In this document: in pieces, positions 5,152-32,208 of the stretch
How positions within the stretch are numbered: position 1 is the first letter of the stretch
Layout: the number at the start of each line of letters is the position of its first letter
Origin: Erysipelotrichaceae bacterium
GTDB lineage: Bacteria; Bacillota_I; Bacilli_A; RFN20; CAG-449
DNA: 32,208 nt
Assembly (NCBI GenBank): GCA_022772105.1
Contig: JALFBO010000004.1
Coordinates: 1 to 32,208, forward strand
Direction: 5' to 3'
Notes under the pieces: model-generated
Told to the model about the DNA's origin: nothing
What the model saw: only the letters and a program-made list of their open reading frames with translations
Database searches by the model: none
Made by a program: the position numbers and the translations under genes

Positions 5152-5626
5152 TCATTTAATCCCTCCATTAATTAATAACGCTTCGAAAATACTTATATTA
5201 GGCTCTTTTCCAAGCGTTAAGTCTATGGAAAAGGGTTTTTATTATATGCATTCACAGAATCGATTCTATCAAGTATTAGATGCGATATTTGACGAAAATA
5301 TGTATCAAGGATCTATTGAATTAAAAAAAGAGACTTTGTTGCAGCTAAGGATTGCTTTGTACGATTCAATTGAATCATGTTCATTAAGTGGATCTAGTGA
5401 TGCCTCTATAAAAGATGTTGTTCCTGCCGCTATTAAGGAACTTATTAAAGGTTCTTCTATTAAACACATTTTTCTAAACGGAAAAAAATCTTATGATATT
5501 TTTATTAAATATCATAGTGAACTAAAAGATATAGCTACTTATCTTCCTTCTACTAGTGCAGCGAATGCTAGATATAGTTTAAAAATGCTAGTAGATGAAT
5601 GGAAAGTGATTAAAGATTATTTATAG
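5129..5626 (+). CDS. DNA-deoxyinosine glycosylase (uracil-DNA glycosylase superfamily)
   Basis: ILILGSFPSVKS, GFYYMHSQNRF, IFLNGKKS, LPSTSAANAR; start may be GTG 5135; overlaps upstream ORF. Confidence 0.88.
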   Translation: MLVKRVSNHLIPPLINNASKILILGSFPSVKSMEKGFYYMHSQNRFYQVLDAIFDENMYQGSIELKKETLLQLRIALYDSIESCSLSGSSDASIKDVVPAAIKELIKGSSIKHIFLNGKKSYDIFIKYHSELKDIATYLPSTSAANARYSLKMLVDEWKVIKDYL

Positions 5627-5640
5627 AAAGAGGAGAGAAA

Positions 5641-6210
5641 ATGAAAAAAGATCTTATTAAAAAATTAGTTCTTCCTTTATCTTATGTGATAATGGGTATA
5701 TTATTTTGTATTTTTAAATCAGTTGTATCAGAATGGATATGTCGAGTAATTGGTATAATAATTACTCTATACGGAAGTATAAATCTAGTGCAAGATTTGA
5801 AAAATAAGAATGCAAATCTATATTTAACAGGAGATGTGGTAACGATTGGCTTTGGTGCCTTAATTATCGTATTATCATTTGTTATTGTAACAGTGATAAA
5901 CATCTTATTAGGTGTTGTATTTATCATTTATGGATGCTATAAAATAGCCTTTGGTCAAATGGTAGGAAAAATTTCTAAATCAACCCTAATAATTGCATTA
6001 ATTGATGGAGCTTTATACCTAGTTATTGGTATTTTATTGATTATTAATTCCGATTCTATTTATATTATTTTGGGTGTTATCTTAATGGTTGCAGGAATTA
6101 TTGATCTAATTCAAATAATGAGCGCTAAAGGTCCATTTAATGAAAGTAAAACATCTTCAAAAGATGTTCTTGATGTAGAAGTTAAAGTGATAGATGATGA
6201 GGAGAAATAA
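5641..6210 (+). CDS. HdeD/DUF308-like multi-pass membrane protein
   Basis: About six hydrophobic helices in repeated G-containing pairs; GAGGAG RBS. Confidence 0.7.
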   Translation: MKKDLIKKLVLPLSYVIMGILFCIFKSVVSEWICRVIGIIITLYGSINLVQDLKNKNANLYLTGDVVTIGFGALIIVLSFVIVTVINILLGVVFIIYGCYKIAFGQMVGKISKSTLIIALIDGALYLVIGILLIINSDSIYIILGVILMVAGIIDLIQIMSAKGPFNESKTSSKDVLDVEVKVIDDEEK

Positions 6211-6225
6211 CACTCTCCTTTTTTT
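6200..6225 (+). terminator. Weak rho-independent terminator candidate
   Basis: AGGAG-N10-CTCCT followed by a T run, overlapping the stop codon. Confidence 0.45.
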
Positions 6226-6254
6226 ATTTACAAAAATTTTATTTTTAAAATGGA

Positions 6255-6283
6255 TTGAAACCATATTTTTATAATGTTATTAT
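6255..6283 (+). promoter_or_regulatory. Sigma-A promoter candidate for the hybrid kinase
   Basis: TTGAAA-17 nt-TATTAT with TGn extension. Confidence 0.55.
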
Positions 6284-6352
6284 ATACTTAGTTGTGGGGT
6301 AAATATTGTAATTAACCTTGATTATAATGCGATTCAAAAGGGGGTATTTATT

Positions 6353-7678
6353 TTGAAAAATAAAATTATATACGGAACAGTTAATGTTTTATTACTTGCT
6401 TTGATTACAACTTGTTCTCTTGTTAACTTTAGCGGAAATTTTATTGTTGTTATATTAGGTGCTTTTCTTCTAGTGGGTTTTAATATATTATCTTTATTTT
6501 TAATGAAGAAAAATCTTGCTATCAAAGTTGAGAAAGCAGAAAAAGAAAATTTGCGTAAATCCGATTTCTTATTTGCTATGTCTCATAGTATTCGTACTCC
6601 AATGAACGCAGGTGTAGGCATGACCAAAATTGCACGTGATCATATTGAGGACAAAAATATCGTTAACGATTGTTTAAGAAAAATCGATTTATCTGGTAGA
6701 AACTTAGTAAGTTTAGTCAACGATATTATCGACTTTTCAAAGGTTGAAAAAGGAAAATATCAACTTTCAAATTCTGTGTTCTCAATTGAAGAACAATTAG
6801 AATATATTAAGATGATTCTTGGTAATGGCTTTGAAGAAAAAGGTATCAAAGTAACATTCGATACAACAAAAGCAAAATATGATTCTATATTTACAGACGA
6901 ATTAAGATTAAATCAAATTTTATTAACTATTATTAATAATGCTATTGATTACAATCGAAAAGATGGTTTAGTCAACGTAGTGGTTGAAGAGATAGAAATA
7001 CCAAATAGAGAAGATAAAGTAGATTTAGTATATAAGATTTCTGATACTGGTATCGGTATGAGCAAAGAATTTATTGCTAGAATATTCGATCCATATTCTC
7101 GTGAAGTAGATACACGTATCGATAGAGTTAATGGTTCAGGCCTTGGTTTAGCTATTAGCAAAAATTTAATCGACTTACTAGGAGGTACTATCGAAGTTAA
7201 ATCAGAAGTTGGCAAAGGTTCTGAGTTTACTGTCAAACTTGAAGTTGAAATCGGTGGTAATGTCATTCATAAAGAAGAAGAAAAAGATACAATTAAGTTT
7301 AAAAATATGCATATCCTAGCAGTGGAAGATAATGAACTTAATTATGAAATCTTAAGTAAGACTCTAGAACAATACGGTATCACTATGGATCATGCTGAAA
7401 ATGGTGAACAAGCAGTAGAAATTATGTCTAACGCAAAACCAAATCAATATAAACTGATTTTAATGGATATTGAAATGCCTAAGATGAATGGCTATGAAGC
7501 AACAAGAGCTATTAGAAAATTAGCAAATGCTAAAGTGGCTTCCACTCCAATTTATGCACTTACTGCTGATGCATTCTCAGAAGATATTAAAAAGGCTAAA
7601 GAAGCTGGAATGAACGGTCATATCTCTAAACCAGTAGATTTTAATAAAGTTATCGCAGTTATTAAAAAGAATAAGTAA
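6353..7678 (+). CDS. Hybrid sensor histidine kinase/receiver protein
   Basis: Two N-terminal TM helices; H-box MSHSIRTPMNA; N-box QILLTIINNAID; G1 DTGIGM; G2 GSGLGLAI; receiver VEDNELN...LMDIEMPKMNG...KP; TTG start. Confidence 0.93.
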   Translation: MKNKIIYGTVNVLLLALITTCSLVNFSGNFIVVILGAFLLVGFNILSLFLMKKNLAIKVEKAEKENLRKSDFLFAMSHSIRTPMNAGVGMTKIARDHIEDKNIVNDCLRKIDLSGRNLVSLVNDIIDFSKVEKGKYQLSNSVFSIEEQLEYIKMILGNGFEEKGIKVTFDTTKAKYDSIFTDELRLNQILLTIINNAIDYNRKDGLVNVVVEEIEIPNREDKVDLVYKISDTGIGMSKEFIARIFDPYSREVDTRIDRVNGSGLGLAISKNLIDLLGGTIEVKSEVGKGSEFTVKLEVEIGGNVIHKEEEKDTIKFKNMHILAVEDNELNYEILSKTLEQYGITMDHAENGEQAVEIMSNAKPNQYKLILMDIEMPKMNGYEATRAIRKLANAKVASTPIYALTADAFSEDIKKAKEAGMNGHISKPVDFNKVIAVIKKNK

Positions 7679-25180: not shown

Positions 25181-27886
25181 ATGAAAAAAAATAATAAAAT
25201 TTTTGCGTGTTTGAGCGTAGCCGCTATGCTTGCCACAGTTACTTTTGTTTCATGCTCGCAAAATAAAACACCTGCAAATAAAGAACAAAATAACAATCAT
25301 ATTAATGAAAATGTTCAAGATGCAGTTTCTCAAAAAATGTTACGAATTCATTATCATAGGGATGATGGTGCGTATTCTGAATGGGATATTTGGTTATGGC
25401 CAGAAGGTGGTGCTGGAGATGCAGTTAAATTCACTAAAACCGATGACTACGGAGTTTACGCGGAAGTAGATCTTGAAAGTGGAGCTTATGCTGGTGCTAC
25501 TAAATTTGGTATTATCATTAGAAAGCCAGACTGGTCTGCAAAAGATGCTTCCGGAGCAGATCGTTTCTTCGAAATTCCTGCAGATGTAGGAGATCAAGGA
25601 TATGATATATATTTATATGGTGGTAAAGAAGATATTTATACAAGTCCAGATGAAGCACAATCTTCTGCATTAAATAATGCATATTTCCAAGATATAACTA
25701 CTGTAAAAGCTGATATCTTCTTAGGAAAAACAGAACATACATTAGTTGTTTCCGATATATCTTTATATGATGGGGATACAAAAATTGATATTTCCAATGT
25801 AGTAATAACTTCTGATTCTATTACATTTAAAGTACCTGAAGGAGCTATTTCTTACTCTGGTCAATACACATTAAAAGTCAAATTTGATGCTGGAGTTGCA
25901 TCTTGTAATGTTTCTTTAACTTCTTTATATGATGATAAGGAATTCTATGATGCTTACACATATTATGGTGATGACCTTGGTGTAACATTCAACAAAACAA
26001 GAACTGCTACTACATTTAAGATTTGGGCGCCAATTTCTAAATCTGTTATTTTAAATATTTATGAAAGTGGCACACCAAAATCATTATCAAATGCATTTGG
26101 AAGCGATGCGATTTATAAACGCATTGAATTAAAGAAAGAACAACAAGGTGTATGGGGTGCAACAATCAATGAAAACTTACACGGTAAGTATTACACATAC
26201 ACTGTTGATAATGGATACGCTGTTAATGAAGTAGTAGATCCATATGCAAAGAGCTGTGGTGTTAATGGCTTAAGAGGATGCATTGTTGATTTCAAAGCAA
26301 TCGATGAAGAAATTCATTGGAACGAAGTATCTCGCCCAAATAATATCACTAAACCAACTGATCAAATTATTTATGAAATGCATATTAATGATATGACTAA
26401 TAGTGAAACTGCTGGTACTAAAGATATGGAATTTGATGGAAAATCATATACAGCAAAGAAACTACGTGGTAAATATCTTGCTATGTCGCAAACAGGTACT
26501 ACTTATACTGATGGCACAACAACGGTTACAACCGGTTTAGATCACTTAAAAGAATTAGGTGTAAACACTGTTCAAATCCAACCAATTTATGATTTCTCTT
26601 CCGTAGAAGAATTTGGTTCTAGCAAAGGATATAACTGGGGCTATGATCCACTTAACTATAACTGTCTAGAAGGTTCATATTCAGTTAATCCAGAAGATGG
26701 TTTATCTAGAATTAAAGAATTTAAAGCAACAATGAAAGCATTCTGTGAAGCAGGAATCAATGTTAATATGGACGTTGTTTATAACCATACTGCATCAACA
26801 GAAAATACAAACTTTGAAAAGATTATTCCAGGTTACTATCATAGAATGACAGAAGCTGGTAAATATTCAAATGGTTCCGGATGTGGAAATGAAATGGCTT
26901 CTGAAAAACCAATGTATCGTAAATTCGTTGTTGATTCATGTAAGTTCTGGTGTGAAACATACAACATTTCTGGTTTCAGATTTGACTTAATGAAATTACT
27001 AGATACAGTTACATTACAACAAGTATATGAAGAATGCGCTAAAGTGTATCCACAAGTAACCGTTTATGGTGAACCTTGGACTGGTGGAACATCAACTGAC
27101 ACATATGTTGGTGTTGATCAAACTACAGTAATCGGTACTAAGGGTGTCGGTGCATTTAACGATCAAATTAGAAACTCAATTAGAGGTGGAAATGATCAAG
27201 GCGCTACTGGTTGGATTCATAATGGAACAACTGGTGTACAAAAGATTGTTGATGGTATTAAAGGTACATTCTACGGTGGATATATTAACGCTGAAAAAGT
27301 TGTTAACTATGTAGCATGTCATGATAACTATTGTATTAACGACCAAATTGAATATTCAAGTGATGGTTCAAATAAGAACAATAAGATCACTCAATCAGAT
27401 GCAATGATCACATTAGCGGAAGGTATTCCTTTCATCTACGAAGGTGATGAATTCTGTAGAACAAAGAATATCTACCATACTACTATTAAAGATGGTAAAG
27501 ATGAAGCAGGTCAAATTATTCATAATACATATAATGCACCACTTTATAACACAATTAACTGGGCAGATAAGATTACTAACTTAAAAGTTAATAATATTCA
27601 TAAAGATCTATTCAAGATTAGAAATGATTATGAAGGATTTAGATACGCTAAAAACAGTGAAATAGCTGAAAATGTTACTATTTTATCACAAGGTAAAGTT
27701 ATCGCTTATAAAGTTAAATCTGGCGATAAAGAATTAGTAGTCGTTCACTCACAAGCTGGTGGAGCTTATAATTTACCTGGCTCATATAAATTATTATTCA
27801 ATAATGTTGATGGCTTAGTTAATTCATCTACTAGTATTACTGATTACATGCTTCCTGTAAATGGAACTGCGGTATTTGTTAAATAA
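25181..27886 (+). CDS. pulA: Type I pullulanase (GH13) lipoprotein with CBM41-like and CBM48-like modules
   Basis: Lipobox FVSC; LRIHYHRDDGAYSEWDIWLW; FKIWAP; YNWGYDP; DVVYNH; GFRFDLM; YGEPW; YVACHDN. Confidence 0.93.
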   Translation: MKKNNKIFACLSVAAMLATVTFVSCSQNKTPANKEQNNNHINENVQDAVSQKMLRIHYHRDDGAYSEWDIWLWPEGGAGDAVKFTKTDDYGVYAEVDLESGAYAGATKFGIIIRKPDWSAKDASGADRFFEIPADVGDQGYDIYLYGGKEDIYTSPDEAQSSALNNAYFQDITTVKADIFLGKTEHTLVVSDISLYDGDTKIDISNVVITSDSITFKVPEGAISYSGQYTLKVKFDAGVASCNVSLTSLYDDKEFYDAYTYYGDDLGVTFNKTRTATTFKIWAPISKSVILNIYESGTPKSLSNAFGSDAIYKRIELKKEQQGVWGATINENLHGKYYTYTVDNGYAVNEVVDPYAKSCGVNGLRGCIVDFKAIDEEIHWNEVSRPNNITKPTDQIIYEMHINDMTNSETAGTKDMEFDGKSYTAKKLRGKYLAMSQTGTTYTDGTTTVTTGLDHLKELGVNTVQIQPIYDFSSVEEFGSSKGYNWGYDPLNYNCLEGSYSVNPEDGLSRIKEFKATMKAFCEAGINVNMDVVYNHTASTENTNFEKIIPGYYHRMTEAGKYSNGSGCGNEMASEKPMYRKFVVDSCKFWCETYNISGFRFDLMKLLDTVTLQQVYEECAKVYPQVTVYGEPWTGGTSTDTYVGVDQTTVIGTKGVGAFNDQIRNSIRGGNDQGATGWIHNGTTGVQKIVDGIKGTFYGGYINAEKVVNYVACHDNYCINDQIEYSSDGSNKNNKITQSDAMITLAEGIPFIYEGDEFCRTKNIYHTTIKDGKDEAGQIIHNTYNAPLYNTINWADKITNLKVNNIHKDLFKIRNDYEGFRYAKNSEIAENVTILSQGKVIAYKVKSGDKELVVVHSQAGGAYNLPGSYKLLFNNVDGLVNSSTSITDYMLPVNGTAVFVK

Positions 27887-27900
27887 GGGAGGAAAAGAAA

Positions 27901-28977
27901 ATGAAAAAGACTATAACATTATTACTTGCTTCCTTAGTAGCAACAACAGGCATTTTAGCAGGCTGTGGAAAGAAAAAAACCGATCCATCCACTTCAAGTT
28001 CAAATTCAACTACAAGTTTAACTTCAACTTCAACTAATGAAGTAACAAGTACAGTCACATCGCAAACAATAACATCAAATCCATCAACTACGATTCCACC
28101 TGAATCATTCGTAGAAGTTGGAGAATATACCATTACTTGGATTAATGGTATTGGATCATCTTATCAATTAGTAGATGGTGGGGTATTACCAGGAAAAGCA
28201 AATGGAAACGATAAAATTGAATTTAAATTAGCATTAGCTTATGGATTTGAAGTTGCTCCTAATGTAACAGCAAACGATGTAACATTAACTCCTGTAGATG
28301 GTGTTTACTCATTTGTTGTCACTGGAAATACAACAATCAAAGCAGCAGACTTAGATGTTAATTATGATGAAGTTATTGAATATTCTTCATATTATCTTCA
28401 ATTAGGTAGCCAAGAATTTGTAAATAAAGAAGAAAATAGATTTATTGTTGATAAATATCCAGTATATTCTAATGAACAATACTATTTTGAAGATATTGAT
28501 TTCAATATTGGTGATACATTCAAGGTTTATGATAGCGTAACATCAGCTGTATTAACAAACTATGAAAAAGTTGATGGAGTATTACCAACTGGCTCAGTAG
28601 CGGCTGATGGAACATTTACTTGTACTGAAAAAGGTACATATGCTATGTACATAAAAGTAACTGGTGGAGAAACTCTAGTATATGTAGAATGCTACAATGA
28701 ACGTGAAATTAAAATTACTGGAGTTGAAGCAGGCTATACATATTATGTTTGGTCATGGGGTGGCGAAAAAGCTAACACATGGTTACCAGGTGTATTAGAT
28801 GGAACAACATTTACATTTACTCTTCCAAAACGTGCTTCTGGCTTCTTAATTGCTCAATTTAATGATGGCTTAGCAATTGAAGATGCTTCTTGGGATGTTA
28901 AGATTAAACAATCAGAAGATATGGCTCCTGTTAAAGGTGTAAGCTCTTATCCAGTTGTTTGGAAAGTTGGAGCTTAA
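27901..28977 (+). CDS. Lipoprotein with Ser/Thr linker and putative starch-binding (SusE/F- or CBM26-like) modules
   Basis: Lipobox LAGC; S/T-rich linker; GDTFKV...GTYAMYIK; YYVWSWGG..W..W; 14 nt downstream of pulA with GGGAGG RBS. The binding function is inference. Confidence 0.7.
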   Translation: MKKTITLLLASLVATTGILAGCGKKKTDPSTSSSNSTTSLTSTSTNEVTSTVTSQTITSNPSTTIPPESFVEVGEYTITWINGIGSSYQLVDGGVLPGKANGNDKIEFKLALAYGFEVAPNVTANDVTLTPVDGVYSFVVTGNTTIKAADLDVNYDEVIEYSSYYLQLGSQEFVNKEENRFIVDKYPVYSNEQYYFEDIDFNIGDTFKVYDSVTSAVLTNYEKVDGVLPTGSVAADGTFTCTEKGTYAMYIKVTGGETLVYVECYNEREIKITGVEAGYTYYVWSWGGEKANTWLPGVLDGTTFTFTLPKRASGFLIAQFNDGLAIEDASWDVKIKQSEDMAPVKGVSSYPVVWKVGA

Positions 28978-28998
28978 TTAATTTCTTAAATTAATAGG

Positions 28999-29006
28999 TA
29001 TGTTTT
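28999..29006 (+). repeat. 8-bp target-site duplication, left
   Basis: TATGTTTT, repeated at 31746-31753 directly outside the other inverted repeat. Confidence 0.85.
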
Positions 29007-29080
29007 GGTTCTCTAAATAAAATTGGGGAAACTTTAGGAAAATGTCTCAAATTGATAAGGGACAGCCAAATAAAAATAAT

Positions 29081-29130
29081 CAAAAGAATGGGGGGAAGCT
29101 ACAATGGTAGCAACCCTCATTTTTCTTTTG
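29081..29130. terminator. Long hairpin near the cassette end, probable terminator
   Basis: CAAAAGAA-TGGGGGG-AA-GCTAC-AATG-GTAGC-AA-CCCTCA-TTT-TTCTTTTG. Confidence 0.65.
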
Positions 29131-29197
29131 TCTAAAAATAAATAATGCTCATGTATTATTTTAATATAAATTTGTTTTGTCATTCATACATACTAGA

Positions 29198-29226
29198 TTG
29201 ATAAAGCAAATTTAAAGGTGTAACAT
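29198..29226 (+). promoter_or_regulatory. Promoter candidate for LRR gene 1
   Basis: TTGATA-17 nt-TAACAT; equivalent TTGAAG-17-TAACAT at 30522-30550. Confidence 0.5.
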
Positions 29227-29291
29227 AATATTAGATAAAGAAATTGAGACATTTATCATATTTATTTTATTTATGAAAGGAATATAAGAAT

Positions 29292-30224
29292 ATGGGAAAT
29301 AAATTCTTAAGATTATTTTTAATAGTGATTTCATCTTTTGCTGCTTCTGTTGGACTGGCGTCATGTGGTAATACATATACTCCTAGTTATGATAATTTAT
29401 CTTTTACAGTCATTAGTGAAGAAGAAAAAATTTGTGAAGTAAACGGATATAAGAAGTATTATAACGATGAAAGAGATAATAATATTTACATTCCTAAAAT
29501 GTGGAATGACTACAAAGTAACATCAATTGGCGAATCTGCTTTCTTTGGTTGCGAATCTTTAAGTTCAATCATGATACCAAATAGTGTAACCTCAATTGGC
29601 GGCTCTGCTTTCAGGAAATGTACCTCTTTAAGTTCAATCTCAATTCCAAAAAGTGTAACCTCAATTGGATTCGGTGCTTTCCTTGATTGTACCTCCTTAA
29701 GTTCAATCGTGATACCAAATAGTGTAACCTCTCTTGGCGGTTATGTTTTCCATGACTGTGCCTCCTTAAGTTCAGTAAAAATAGGAAATGGTGTAACCTC
29801 AATTGGAGACGATACTTTTTATGGATGCAGCTCTTTAAGTTCAATCGTGATACCAGGTAGTGTAACCTCAATTGGCGAAAGTGCTTTCAATCTTTGTACC
29901 TCCTTAAGTTCAATCGTGATACCAGATAGTGTAATCTCAATAGACCGCGCTGCTTTCCAAAGATGTTCCTCTTTAAGTTCAGTAACAATAGGAAATGGTG
30001 TAACCTCTCTTGGCGAGCTTGCTTTCTCTTTTTGTCCATCCTTAAGTTCAATCGTGATACCAGATAGTGTAACCTCAATAGGCAGCTCTGTTTTCTATAG
30101 TAGTAAGTCCTTAAGTGATGTATACTATATTGGTTCAGAAGAACAATGGAATGCTATTAGTATTGATTCGACTAATGATGAATTAAATTCTGCTACTATC
30201 CACTATAACTATGTAGGTAAGTAA
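29292..30224 (+). CDS. BspA-type (LRR_5/TpLRR) leucine-rich repeat lipoprotein, 9 repeats
   Basis: Lipobox LASC; 23-aa repeats VTSIGxxAFxxCxSLSSIVIPDS; C-cap VYYIGSEEQW..I.....L.SATIHYN. Confidence 0.93.
   Translation: MGNKFLRLFLIVISSFAASVGLASCGNTYTPSYDNLSFTVISEEEKICEVNGYKKYYNDERDNNIYIPKMWNDYKVTSIGESAFFGCESLSSIMIPNSVTSIGGSAFRKCTSLSSISIPKSVTSIGFGAFLDCTSLSSIVIPNSVTSLGGYVFHDCASLSSVKIGNGVTSIGDDTFYGCSSLSSIVIPGSVTSIGESAFNLCTSLSSIVIPDSVISIDRAAFQRCSSLSSVTIGNGVTSLGELAFSFCPSLSSIVIPDSVTSIGSSVFYSSKSLSDVYYIGSEEQWNAISIDSTNDELNSATIHYNYVGK
29517..30116 (+). repeat. Nine tandem 69-bp coding repeats (last one partial)
   Basis: Units start at 29517, 29586, 29655, 29724, 29793, 29862, 29931, 30000 and 30069; framework GTAACCTCAATTGG...GCTTTC...TGT...TTAAGTTCAATCGTGATACCA. 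Confidence 0.95.
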
Positions 30225-30232
30225 CTAATCTT

Positions 30233-30289
30233 TTATAAAAAGATGTTATCATCTTCAATTCCAAGTAATTTTATTATAAAATTGTACAT
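30233..30289 (-). pseudogene. N-terminal remnant of a probable ISL3-family transposase
   Basis: AGAAAGGAG RBS then MYNFIIKLLGIEDDNIFL*, about 170 bp inside the IR at 30456; resembles the KLLxIxDxNI start of Firmicutes ISL3 transposases (recalled, not searched). Confidence 0.6.
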
Positions 30290-30615
30290 GTATATGACTC
30301 CTTTCTTTGCTTATTTTTAGACAACTTAATTATAAGAAAAGTCATATACTTTTTTAATGGAAAAAACAAAATAAAAACTTATCAAACAAGTGGGGGATTA
30401 TTTTGACCCCAAAAATTTGATAAGCGAAGCGTTCCCCAATTTCATTTAGAGAAACCTAAAAATAAATAATGTTCATGCATTATTTTAATATAAATTTATT
30501 TTGTCTTTCATACAAATTGGATTGAAGGAGCGAATATAAAGGTGTAACATAATATTAGTCAATGAAATTGAGACATTTATCATGCTTATTTTATTTATGA
30601 AAGGAATATAAGAAA

Positions 30616-31515
30616 ATGGTTAATAAATTATTAAGATTATTTTTAATAGTGATATCATCTTTTACTGCTTCTGTTGGAATGGCGTCATGTAGTGTAAATA
30701 ATATGTTTCATAGACATAAATATAATAAACAAGTAATAATAGATGAATATAAAGCAAGTGATGCAGATTGTGAACATGCTGGAACATATTATTACTCTTG
30801 TAGTTGTGGCAAACTTGGGACAGAAACATTTGAATATGGAGAACCATTAGGACATAATTGGTGTTATGAATATTTTCAAACATTAGAAGGAGAATTTTAT
30901 CAAATCGTAACTTGTTTTAGATGTGATGAAAAAGAAAAAAGAACCATTCAAAGTGTTAATAATTTATCATTTGCAGTCATTAGTGAAGAAGAAAAAACTT
31001 GTGAAGTAATCGGATATAGGAAGTATTATAACGATGAAAGAGATAATTATATTTGCATTCCTAAAATGTGGAATGACTACAAAGTAACCTCAATTGGCGA
31101 CTTTGCTTTCGAGTTGTGCTCCTCCTTAAGATCAATCGTGATACCAGATAGTGTAACCTCAATTGGAAAATGTGCTTTCGAGTGTTGCTCCTCCTTAAGA
31201 TCAATCGTGATACCAGATAGTGTAACCTCAATTGGCAACTCTGCTTTCTGGTGTTGTTCCTCCTTAAGTTCAATCGAGATACCAGATAGTGTAACTTCAA
31301 TTGGCAACTATGCTTTCTATTATTGTCGCTCCTTAAGATCAGTAACAATAGGAAATAGTGTAACCTCAATTGGCAGAGGTGCTTTCTATGAGTGTACCTC
31401 CTTAAGTGATGTGTACTATATTGGTTCAGAAGAACAATGGAATGATATCAGTATTGGTTCTAGTAATGATAGATTAAAATCTGCTACTATCCACTATAAC
31501 TATGTAGGTAAGTAA
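30616..31515 (+). CDS. BspA-type LRR lipoprotein, 5 repeats, with an extra Cys/His-rich N-terminal module
   Basis: Lipobox MASC; ADCEHAGTYYYSCSCG...PLGHNW...CFRC; same N-cap and C-cap as gene 1. Confidence 0.92.
   Translation: MVNKLLRLFLIVISSFTASVGMASCSVNNMFHRHKYNKQVIIDEYKASDADCEHAGTYYYSCSCGKLGTETFEYGEPLGHNWCYEYFQTLEGEFYQIVTCFRCDEKEKRTIQSVNNLSFAVISEEEKTCEVIGYRKYYNDERDNYICIPKMWNDYKVTSIGDFAFELCSSLRSIVIPDSVTSIGKCAFECCSSLRSIVIPDSVTSIGNSAFWCCSSLSSIEIPDSVTSIGNYAFYYCRSLRSVTIGNSVTSIGRGAFYECTSLSDVYYIGSEEQWNDISIGSSNDRLKSATIHYNYVGK
31084..31407 (+). repeat. Five tandem 69-bp coding repeats (last one partial)
   Basis: Units start at 31084, 31153, 31222, 31291 and 31360. Confidence 0.95.
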
Positions 31516-31580
31516 CTAATCTTTAATAAAAAGATGTTATTATCTTCAATTCCAAGTAATTGTATTATAATATTGTATAT
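31500..31580 (-). pseudogene. Second transposase N-terminal remnant with start codon changed to ATA
   Basis: Same RBS, then (I)YNIIIQLLGIEDNNIFLLKISYLPT*. Confidence 0.5.
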
Positions 31581-31745
31581 GTATATGACTCCTTTCTTTG
31601 CTTATTTTTAGACAACTTAATTATAAGAAAAGTCATATACTTTTTTAATGGAAAAAACAAAATTAAAAACTTATCAAACTAGGGGGATTATTTTGACCCC
31701 CAAAAATTTGATAAGTAAACGCTCCCTAATTTTATTTTAAGAACC

Positions 31746-31753
31746 TATGTTTT
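31746..31753 (+). repeat. 8-bp target-site duplication, right
   Basis: TATGTTTT directly after GAACC. Confidence 0.85.
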
Positions 31754-31818
31754 AAAAGGCGTGCCTATTTTTTTATTTTCGTTTTTGGTGTATTATAATA
31801 AAGAAAGGTGAAAAATAT

Positions 31819-32208
31819 ATGTTATATAAAATTTCTCAAGAAGTACAACAAGCATTAAAAGAAAATAAACCGGTAATTGCCCTAGAATCAACAATTATTT
31901 CTCATGGGATGCCTTATCCACAAAACGTGGAAACAGCATTAAAAGTGGAACAAATAATTAGAGATAATGGATGTATTCCTGCAACGATTGGAATTATTGA
32001 AGGAACTCCAATTATTGGAATGAGTAAAGATGAAATTGAATTATTTGGAAAAACTCCTGGTATTTTAAAAGCATCAAGAAGAGATCTCCCAGTTATTATG
32101 GCTAAAAAATTATGGGGAGCAACAACTGTGGCAACCACTATGATTCTTGCTTCTATCGCGGGAATAGAAGTCTTTGTTACAGGTGGAATTGGAGGAGTTC
32201 ATAAGGGA
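31819..32208 (+). CDS. psuG: Pseudouridine-5'-phosphate glycosidase (partial; runs off the window; not in the ORF track)
   Basis: Manual translation MLYKISQEVQQALKENKPVIALESTIISHGMPYPQN...SRRDLP...GATTVATTM...FVTGGIGGVHKG; AGAAAGGTG RBS. Confidence 0.95.
   Translation, partial: MLYKISQEVQQALKENKPVIALESTIISHGMPYPQNVETALKVEQIIRDNGCIPATIGIIEGTPIIGMSKDEIELFGKTPGILKASRRDLPVIMAKKLWGATTVATTMILASIAGIEVFVTGGIGGVHKG

Follow-up and report, generated by a model that had tools for sequence, protein, structure and literature searches.

Mobile insertion cassettes (MICs) have been described chiefly in the Bacillus cereus group and in connection with resistance genes. They consist of insertion sequence (IS) ends that enclose one or more passenger genes, carry no transposase and are mobilised in trans by the cognate IS, as is established for IS231 and MIC231 in the accessible part of the source (PMC6199540). 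Here, a stretch of 32,208 nucleotides was analysed (GenBank assembly GCA_022772105.1, contig JALFBO010000004.1, Erysipelotrichaceae bacterium), which is referred to as the window, gives the numbering for all positions and belongs to the metagenome-assembled genome (MAG) of a pig-gut bacterium (G000; 196 contigs, 1.44 Mb, 91% complete). Positions 29007-31745 of the window hold an element with ISL3-type ends and two genes for leucine-rich repeat (LRR) lipoproteins, LRR1 and LRR2. It is an ISL3-derived MIC, a kind known since MIC231, from which it differs in parent family and cargo. That this non-autonomous cassette arose by fusion of an LRR gene with an ISL3 element, inserted, was doubled by a transposase acting in trans and is now probably fixed is the history that we consider likely.

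Like MIC231, which occurs in Bacillus cereus sensu lato and derives from IS231 of the IS4 family, the element has two IS-type inverted repeats (IRs), no transposase and passenger coding sequences, it falls within the size range of 0.7-3 kb, and conserved IS-derived sequence stands beside its IRs (PMC6199540, accessible part). MIC231 depends on its cognate transposase in trans, and by analogy the cassette would do so too. The differences are that the parent belongs to the ISL3 family and is not IS231, that two adhesin-like LRR lipoproteins, with a putative adhesin function, make up the cargo, that this cargo replaces the transposase open reading frame (ORF) almost codon-exactly and in antisense orientation, and that two tandem units have one left end in common. 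MIC231 forms a family of several copies with different passengers and the same ends, whereas one cassette locus was found here; this is a trait of the family and not part of the definition of a MIC. An earlier interpretation of the window from its letters alone (the sequence-only reading) knew of no description of such a pairing. As a kind, the pairing of IS ends with a passenger and no transposase is what defines a MIC in the available text of PMC6199540, whereas neither an ISL3-derived MIC nor an IS cassette with BspA/LRR cargo was found in the full-text literature searched, which was mostly without subscription journals.

Passenger genes have also been described within ISL3 elements. ISPst2 and ISPpu12 share with the element the GG-starting IRs of ~24 nt, an 8-bp direct repeat (DR) and extra genes inside the IRs, but in the accessible parts of the sources they keep their transposase, are autonomous and carry regulators, permeases, a signal peptidase or a metal antiporter, whereas only 16-18 transposase codons are left here (PMC6305408, PMC4133298). 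Miniature inverted-repeat transposable elements (MITEs) of the same IS, found on two other contigs of the genome (C133, 285 bp; C65, 142 bp) and in a second genome of the genus (G006:C11, 400 bp), likewise have the IRs, the subterminal sequences and no transposase, yet they are without cargo, while the element in the window is ten times larger and has expressed-looking genes.

Ends of the insertion and its empty site

The element measures 2.7 kb and is bounded by 23-nt IRs that agree at 20/23 positions: the left IR GGTTCTCTAAATAAAATTGGGGA (29007-29029) pairs with TCCCTAATTTTATTTTAAGAACC (31723-31745) with 3 mismatches, and in the repeat search this outer pair (I1) extends to 30 nt at 80%. The cassette ends carry GGTTCTCTAAATAAAATTGGGG. 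Directly outside both IRs stands an exact, AT-rich 8-bp direct repeat, TATGTTTT (28999-29006 and 31746-31753). As an 8-nt match between the flanks has a chance probability of ~5e-5 at the composition of the window (A 0.36, T 0.34) and the ends recur elsewhere, chance IRs and a chance target site duplication (TSD) were ruled out. A third full-length IR of the right-hand type lies inside the element at 30433-30456 (pair I2, 22 nt, 95%), and the element is therefore made up of two tandem units behind one left end. The terminal repeats of the sequence-only reading were hence confirmed, both by reading and by the repeat search, and joined by an internal one, and its statement that the two LRR lipoprotein genes are the only intact ones also held: among the 19 ORFs of at least 40 amino acids (aa) over 27000-32208, those inside the element are LRR1 and LRR2, both with PF13306 matches and a lipobox cysteine, and short antisense frames within both. 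No transposase gene lies inside the element, and contig C118 gave no PF01610 match in the profile search of the genome contigs. The parts of the locus are listed below, where minus is the strand of the lost transposase, G008 is a congener, L030 is a further copy of the ends and P0002 is an ISL3 transposase from public metagenomes.

28999-29006, no strand: left TSD copy, TATGTTTT; by comparison with G008, it contributes to stem and loop of the hairpin that terminates the upstream gene
29007-29029, no strand: IRR, GGTTCTCTAAATAAAATTGGGGA, the IR farther from where the transposase used to begin; same terminus in C133, C65, G006 and L030
29030-29166, minus: IS 3' region, downstream of the stop codon of the parent transposase; 88% to C133 in BLASTN
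29167-29291, plus: upstream region of cargo 1 with the ribosome-binding site (RBS) AAAGGA; left cargo boundary good to ~+/-5 nt
29292-30224, plus: LRR1, 310 aa; PF13306, E 3.8e-64
30233-30289, minus: stub 1, the first 18 ISL3 transposase codons, MYNFIIKLLGIEDDNIFL, and a TAA stop; codons 1-16 match P0002 at 14/16
30290-30432, minus: IS 5' untranslated region (UTR) of unit 1, with RBS AAAGGAG, promoter-like TTAAAA-17-TATAAT (30357-30329) and a hairpin beside the IR
30433-30456, no strand: IRL-1, full-length internal IR, which abuts TAAAAATA at 30457-30464; bridged in X1, X2 and X3 (records 4, 14 and 23)
30457-30490, minus: last 34 nt of the IS 3' region in unit 2 (equivalent to 29133-29166); IRR and the first ~125 nt are missing
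30491-30615, plus: upstream region of cargo 2, with a promoter-like site at 30556-30583 and an RBS; 89% to unit 1
30616-31515, plus: LRR2, 299 aa, with an extra Cys-rich N-terminal module and fewer LRR units; PF13306, E 2e-37
31527-31580, minus: stub 2, IYNIIIQLLGIEDNNIFL..., start codon ATA; residues 2-16 match P0002 at 14/15
31581-31722, minus: IS 5' UTR of unit 2, with a promoter-like site at 31648-31620 and a hairpin; 92% to unit 1
31723-31745, no strand: IRL-2, the outer right IR, 3 mismatches to IRR
31746-31753, no strand: right TSD copy, TATGTTTT; next come the remainder of the terminator hairpin and psuG

The run-based evidence comes from Logan contigs (not raw reads), which drop rare variants, of three DNA runs from three studies (X1, X2 and X3). 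The left, inner and right junctions are bridged by such contigs in 3/3 runs; in X2, record 11 spans 28745-29237 and record 14 spans 30386-30614 with 0 differences each, and record 18, with 0 differing letters, is another junction-bridging example. Since all three junctions are bridged in X1, X2 and X3, an assembly artefact of the MAG was ruled out.

The element lies between the gene for a pullulanase-associated lipoprotein and psuG. Among 15 genomes of the genus, this upstream lipoprotein has one clear ortholog, on contig C29 of G008 (81%), and the 8 other matching genomes stay at or below 45%. On G008:C29 the order pullulanase, lipoprotein, psuG is kept, and the 126-bp spacer before psuG contains no insert, no LRR genes and no IS pieces; its terminator hairpin reads AATAGGTATG-ACTCTTTAAAAGAG-CATACCTATTTTTTTT (AATAGGTATG...CATACCTATTTTTTT). 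The left flank in the window ends with ...AATAGGTATGTTTT and the right flank begins with TATGTTTTAAAAGGCGTGCCTATTTTTTT, and if the insert and one TATGTTTT are removed, the hairpin is rebuilt and colinear with that of G008. As aligned, the two loci are a classical pair of filled and empty site, between species rather than strains, and the alignment shows that an element with ISL3 ends was inserted by transposition into the loop of the terminator, duplicating TATGTTTT. The empty site that was expected in related strains has thus been located in a congener.

The same comparison bears on the idea that the LRR genes are native to the site and were bracketed, on either side and in between, by independent insertions of IS fragments or miniature copies. 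Miniature copies do occur in C133 and C65, where one adjoins an LRR paralog, and LRR_5 genes are common in the family (24/31 genomes), yet one and the same 8-bp repeat encloses all 2.7 kb, no IS-derived piece has a second IR, and the site in G008 has a continuous hairpin with neither LRR genes nor IS pieces. In addition, the IS-derived sequence corresponds precisely to what a single IS has on the 5' and 3' sides of its ORF, with the ORF itself exchanged, and we regard bracketing as very improbable indeed.

Positions 1-27000 of the window are core chromosome (ProRS, AlaRS, holA, truB, ribF, PNPase, a hybrid histidine kinase, a CNNM/CBS protein and a Big_2/VanZ protein), and the window contains no further mobile-element gene. 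The lipoprotein gene upstream of the element (27901-28977, downstream of the pullulanase gene) encodes 358 aa without a Pfam family at E<=0.01; apart from the 81% ortholog in G008, the protein has matches of at most 45% in 8 genomes of the genus, and it is possibly a starch- or pullulan-binding partner. A search of 28800-32000 for known RNA families gave 0 matches at E<=0.1.

The parent insertion sequence

The outer and inner IRs start with GG, as is typical of the terminal repeats of ~15-40 bp in this family, and the TSD is 8 bp long and AT-rich, which is the ISL3 pattern, as ISL3 elements are tabulated with GG-starting IRs and 8-bp DRs (PMC6305408, accessible part). Together with a stub that matches the transposase P0002, this bears out the assignment of the element as a transposase-less ISL3 derivative in the sequence-only reading. 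P0002 was the best match in a protein search whose query was a transposase remnant on contig C124, read through with X at the stop codon, and which gave 19 proteins at E<=1e-5 among 22 candidates. It comes from public metagenomes, represents a cluster of 68 sequences, is 442 aa long and has precomputed PF14690 (zf-ISL3) and PF01610 (DDE_Tnp_ISL3) domains. The protein starts with MYNFIIQLLGIEDNNI, within a longer N-terminal stretch MYNFIIQLLGIEDNNITIDD, and its C-terminus ...PKSKDKIDQDKFPYVKKRK resembles those of C124 and G006. In the whole genome, the first 16 residues of P0002 match only the two stubs (14/16 and 14/15), and on this alignment the stub represents the genuine N-terminal end of an ISL3 transposase. 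An intact ISL3 transposase with this start, as had been anticipated, exists as a protein of public metagenomes, while no intact cognate one was found in the genome. The description of an 18-codon stub behind an RBS applies to unit 1, where MYNFIIKLLGIEDDNIFL* stands at 30289-30236 of the minus strand and is preceded by AAAGGAG; in unit 2 the ATG has become ATA and no stop follows codon 18.

PF01610 has five matches in the genome, namely C94 (with an in-frame TGA), C80, two on C180 and C124 (broken). C80 and C94 are one ISL3 type with the IR GGGTATATAAAATAAAAGTTGG, which differs from the cassette IR though it is similar, and C180 is a third type; identity to P0002 is 53-54% for C80 and C94 (C80 52.9%) and 32% for C180, and plasmid ISL3 elements are ~30% identical to it (2543 records, all <60%). 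The C94 element (5580-7460, L079) has an exact 8-bp TSD, TAAAAAGT. Its in-frame TGA stands where C80 (L002) has Gly (..CKEC*FTFLEPN vs ..CKECGTTFLEPN); C80 is intact with an open frame of 543 codons, and both encode a C-terminal extension of ~90 aa that P0002 is without.

The pseudogene on C124 (PF01610, E 2.8e-8) is far closer to P0002, with 98% over residues 255-302 and 86% over residues 365-442; residues 303-364 are deleted and a TAA is present. Its 3' flank (C124 359-416) matches window 29107-29163 in reverse. On G006:C11, from the same genus, the two IRs of a 400-bp element stand on either side of the final ~25 codons of this transposase and the 3' region. In a by-eye alignment, the homology of the 3' region with C124 and G006 begins at the TAA stop codon, and 29030-29166 is without a ~35-nt hairpin that C133, G006 and C124 have. 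The cassette ends would thus be those of a P0002-type ISL3, a link that is indirect and runs via the C124 and G006 remnants. Comparison with P0002, C124 and G006 places the left cargo boundary within ~5 nt of the transposase stop and the right one at codon 16-18.

Contig C124 itself (1-1762, L005) begins inside the transposase gene, so that the pseudogene starts at the contig edge, and after the hairpin it continues into an IS3-family element with overlapping ORFs (517-885 and 819-1736), which seems to have cut off the right end of the P0002-type IS.

Two tandem units and the inner joint

Along the minus strand, a unit consists of IRL, a 5' UTR of ~165 nt with a hairpin, an RBS, 16-18 transposase codons, the antisense LRR gene and IS 3' sequence. 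The non-coding parts of the two units are 89-92% identical (repeat pair D2, 29132-29369 vs 30456-30693, 89%). Because both have the identical ...NIFL transposase/LRR junction, and because their left junctions coincide at the stop codon, they point to one founding fusion that was doubled later. Unit 1 runs to IRR at 29007, while unit 2 ends 34 nt past the stop-codon position, where it is joined at TAAAAATA to the terminus of IRL-1, so that the inner joint sets a complete IR terminus against an AT-rich 8-mer inside the IS 3' region. The flanks of unit 1 are unequal (TATGTTTT vs TAAAAATA), and unit 2 alone is without a left IR. By our own estimate, a random duplication breakpoint falls on an IR terminus at ~1 in 1300 positions, and a microhomology-mediated duplication that ended exactly there would be a coincidence of that order. 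Since the units have one transposase/LRR junction and a full IRL-1 abuts TAAAAATA, a transposase would have acted in trans after the LRR fusion.

The likely history can then be set out in four steps. At the founding, the ORF of a P0002-type ISL3 transposase would have been replaced from about codon 17 to the stop by a promoter-bearing LRR lipoprotein gene in opposite orientation, which left intact both IRs, the 5' UTR of ~165 nt and a 3' region of ~160 nt. The cassette would have inserted into the loop of the terminator between the pullulanase-associated lipoprotein gene and psuG, with duplication of TATGTTTT. The present structure, IRR-A-B-IRL followed by TAAAAATA-B'-IRL, would have come about through a transposase-made inner joint, either by insertion of a cassette into the resident one at TAAAAATA and subsequent recombination between the direct copies of IRR and ~125 nt, which removes one of them, or by a one-ended strand transfer that joined IRL to a sister copy; in either case, a P0002-type transposase would have acted in trans on a cassette already bearing the LRR gene. 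Finally, the LRR arrays of the two surface lipoproteins may now recombine and give rise to size and module variants from strain to strain.

Several observations weigh against this history. The genome has one cassette locus, a further LRR cassette flanked by a TSD of its own was not found in it, and the TSDs of the miniature copies C133, C65 and G006 were not recognisable. No intact cognate transposase was found in the 91%-complete MAG of 196 contigs, where C124 is the only (pseudogene) remnant; a P0002-like copy of >54% identity was found neither in the 401 genomes of the order (best 54%; 15/401 at E<=1e-60) nor in the 399 genomes scored for the class, among which G000 alone reached E<=1e-120, and the statement that the cassette has the same ends as the P0002-type IS goes back to the C124 and G006 remnants as aligned. 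The insert stands at the same site in the related locus L031 (97.75% over 13.8 kb, a comparison that takes in LRR1) and in 3/3 DNA runs, and within the species the expected empty sites did not appear: no joint 29006->31754 is among the joints listed for the three runs, whose contigs drop rare variants. Moreover, there are mismatches at 3/23 positions between the outer IRs, the units have diverged by 9-11%, and stub 2 no longer begins with ATG. On account of the diverged IRs, the diverged units and the decayed stub 2, the insertion appears to be old and fixed, and the element is probably no longer moving in this genome. The cargo could also have replaced the transposase in situ after insertion.

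In the last case, an intact ISL3 would have made the TSD, LRR genes would later have overwritten its transposase by illegitimate recombination or gene conversion, and the element would be a dead-end fossil that never transposed as a cassette. The single cassette locus in the genome, the shared site in L031 and in 3/3 DNA runs, the failure to find an intact cognate transposase, the diverged IRs and the decay of stub 2 all fit such a course. However, the LRR/stub junction is already present in the unit in which the full-length IRL-1 meets TAAAAATA, and this joint calls for a transposase that acted after the fusion. The LRR paralog on C65, at another locus, has the same first 34 nt past the stop codon, stub-derived bases included, and contigs of X3 join the stub and IRL end to other sequence at 30246/30251 (at contig level only). 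In-situ decay is hence judged unlikely, and we keep to a cassette that was already fused when a transposase last acted on it.

Two further features of the units were observed. The 14-mer TTGTCTAAAAATAA at 29128-29141, ~120-135 nt inside IRR, has exact inverted copies at 30311-30324 and 31602-31615, ~130-145 nt inside each IRL (pairs I16/I17), and the inner unit joint falls within the left copy; it is possibly a subterminal transposase-binding site or a preferred target site. Directly inside each IRL lies a long hairpin, CTTATCAAA..GGGG..CCCC..TTTGATAAG (30378-30424 and 31668-31716), which also occurs in C133, C65, G006:C11 and L030. This 5' UTR hairpin is kept in 6/6 copies with covariation at 1/24 pairs (covariation term 0.09), and with nearly no covariation it does not argue for a structured RNA. 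As a putative role, the hairpin may shield the transposase gene from transcription that enters from outside.

LRR cargo, spread and meaning

LRR1 and LRR2 both match PF13306 (LRR_5, 'BspA type') above the cut-off of 27.7 bits, whereas matches to NF047961 (HupY/LrrG) are far below theirs (81.7 bits vs 1250). In both translations, read by eye, the signal peptide ends in a lipobox cysteine at residue 25 (...ASVGLAS|C in LRR1, ...ASVGMAS|C in LRR2), and the proteins are predicted to be surface-exposed binders. Variable surface lipoprotein families have constant ends and a repeat-rich middle. The subfamily of LRR1 has the same design: 6429 proteins match LRR1 at E<=1e-30 among 8000 scored candidates, and 15 were compared, namely LRR1, LRR2, the L031 protein and 12 that were chosen for high identity or coverage among the 120 matches listed. 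All 15 agree at both ends, with 76-100% identity to LRR1 over the first 25 residues and 79-92% over the final ~38 (SLSDVYYIGSEEQWN...HYNY.GK), and they are 172-435 aa long. Between these ends, a Cys-rich DCEH...CSCG module is present in 8/15 (LRR2 and 7/13 other subfamily members), a KEGNTVYDSR insert in 5/15, and the number of 23-residue LRR units varies, with two extra units in the LRR1 of L031 (356 aa). In LRR2, the module H..YN.QV...DCEH..TYYYSCSCG...GH. occupies residues ~27-115 (30688-30960) between the lipobox and the LRRs and has no Pfam match at E<=0.01. LRR1 DNA contains a repeat family (D1) with a period of 69 bp, P0032 combines an LRR2-type N-terminus with LRR1-type repeats, and an X3 contig joins 31302 back to 30092. 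As compared here, between strains and samples, the modular variants fit recombination among the 69-bp repeats and between the tandem units.

The likeness to variable surface lipoproteins such as Vpma (Mycoplasma surface variation by Vpma is named in the accessible part of PMC12103780) thus lies in the constant signal-peptide end and C-terminus and the modular, variable middle. In contrast to such systems, neither a site-specific recombinase nor an invertible promoter was seen, the variation is one between strains and metagenomes, and the domain is a BspA-type LRR.

As to expression, the sequence-only reading had given each LRR gene its own promoter and RBS. The RBSs are present, whereas the promoters do not go beyond consensus matches: promoter-like hexamers stand upstream of LRR1 at 29198-29226 and 29232-29259, but with 25 promoter-like sites in the scan and 17.7 +/- 4.8 in shuffled sequence there is no enrichment. 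As the upstream terminator is interrupted by the insert and both LRR genes run in the direction of the pullulanase genes, read-through may add to their expression, and the retained transposase promoter, which faces the 3' ends of the LRR genes, could give a putative antisense RNA. The RNA run X15 yielded two contigs on the flanks only (28606-29030 and 31883-32100) and none on the LRR genes, which as contig data is uninformative either way.

Cargo-less copies of the ends occur at other loci, namely C133 (285 bp), C65 (142 bp), G006:C11 (400 bp) and L030; a flank repeat beside the C133 and C65 copies was dropped as a candidate, being only a 34-nt similarity. Of the multiple copies with different TSDs and cargo that the sequence-only reading had foreseen, these cargo-less ones were found and a second LRR cassette with its own TSD was not. 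Among 61 relatives, 15 gave matches to the ends at E<=0.001, of which only G000 and G006 have matches of ~100 nt or more, and the other 13, G026 included, have matches of ~25-75 nt in AT-rich sequence. Among the 401 genomes of the order, with 2 candidates scored per genome, 4 reached E<=1e-5, namely G000, G006 and, with matches of 34-37 nt, G026 and G126, so that real matches number 2/401 (G000 and G006). An exact 20-mer scan found 1 stretch in genome contigs (apparently the G006 contig) and 2 in metagenome contigs. The match in G026, a genome of another genus, is 36 nt long (C106:576-611, L008) with 95% to the RBS-proximal 5' UTR and stands just before the beginning of an unrelated ORF, which we take to be an IS256/Mutator-type transposase; the match reflects either a leader motif common to both or a chance likeness in AT-rich DNA.

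LRR_5 paralogs, on the other hand, occur in 24/31 genomes of the family; a single genome has up to 28 matches, and identity to LRR1 is at most 59% over the matched stretches. Given ends in 2/401 genomes and LRR_5 in 24/31, the expansion of LRR genes in the lineage is independent of the element's IS, and the spread of an LRR family through the genome by the cassette, as once proposed, is not supported, given the single locus. The only other close LRR paralog in the genome, on C65 (72% to LRR2 over 143 aa), has 34 nt past its stop codon in common with the cassette, which reach the stub-derived bases, and lies ~280 nt from the 142-bp miniature copy.

Some contigs place parts of the cassette in other contexts, at the level of contigs that may derive from other organisms in the sample. 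In X3, the summed depth over 30238-30471 (the IS 5' end) is 5-10x that of the flanks, and contigs join this end to other sequence at 30246/30251 and show a different flank after 30450; in X2, a contig has the LRR leader from 29182 onward preceded by different sequence. A cassette family that is still active, mobilised by an unassembled P0002-type IS or by the intact ISL3 of C80 and spreading variable LRR genes between loci or strains, would account for these leader and stub ends. IS copies often fail to assemble, C124 begins at a contig edge inside the transposase gene, and 68 sequences are clustered under P0002. C80 encodes an intact transposase with 52.9% identity to P0002, and its IR GGGTATATAAAATAAAAGTTGG matches 17/22 positions of the cassette IR with two 1-nt gaps (by eye). 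The regulator of one ISL3 isoform reportedly acts on two different ISL3-like elements, according to the title of a study cited in PMC4133298. Against continued activity stand the one locus, the same site everywhere sampled, the decayed IRs and stub, and the finding of the ends in only G000 and G006 among the 401 genomes of the order, and we hold it to be decidedly unlikely. The bolder proposal that a P0002-type transposase in trans moves LRR cassettes between pig-gut Bacilli genomes and stacks tandem arrays at a preferred subterminal AT-rich site, with recombination between units yielding the repertoire of 172-435 aa, is just as doubtful. If true, it would make the locus an IS-built analogue of a contingency locus, to which the retained transposase promoter could add antisense control.

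For a cassette that appears old and is probably fixed, the practical value is modest and consists of a template for searches of MAGs, i.e., IS ends and an N-terminal transposase stub without the ORF, as annotation pipelines do not flag MICs because these carry no transposase. The locus provides a clean, junction-resolved example of a MIC from an uncultured pig-gut lineage of Bacilli, with an ISL3 parent and cargo of a host-interaction type, and its inner IR joint is evidence, at the level of sequence, that would speak for action in trans on a transposase-less element. It is also a defined locus for strain-level variation of LRR surface proteins, and it illustrates that IS machinery can deliver adhesin-like lipoprotein genes into the core chromosome.

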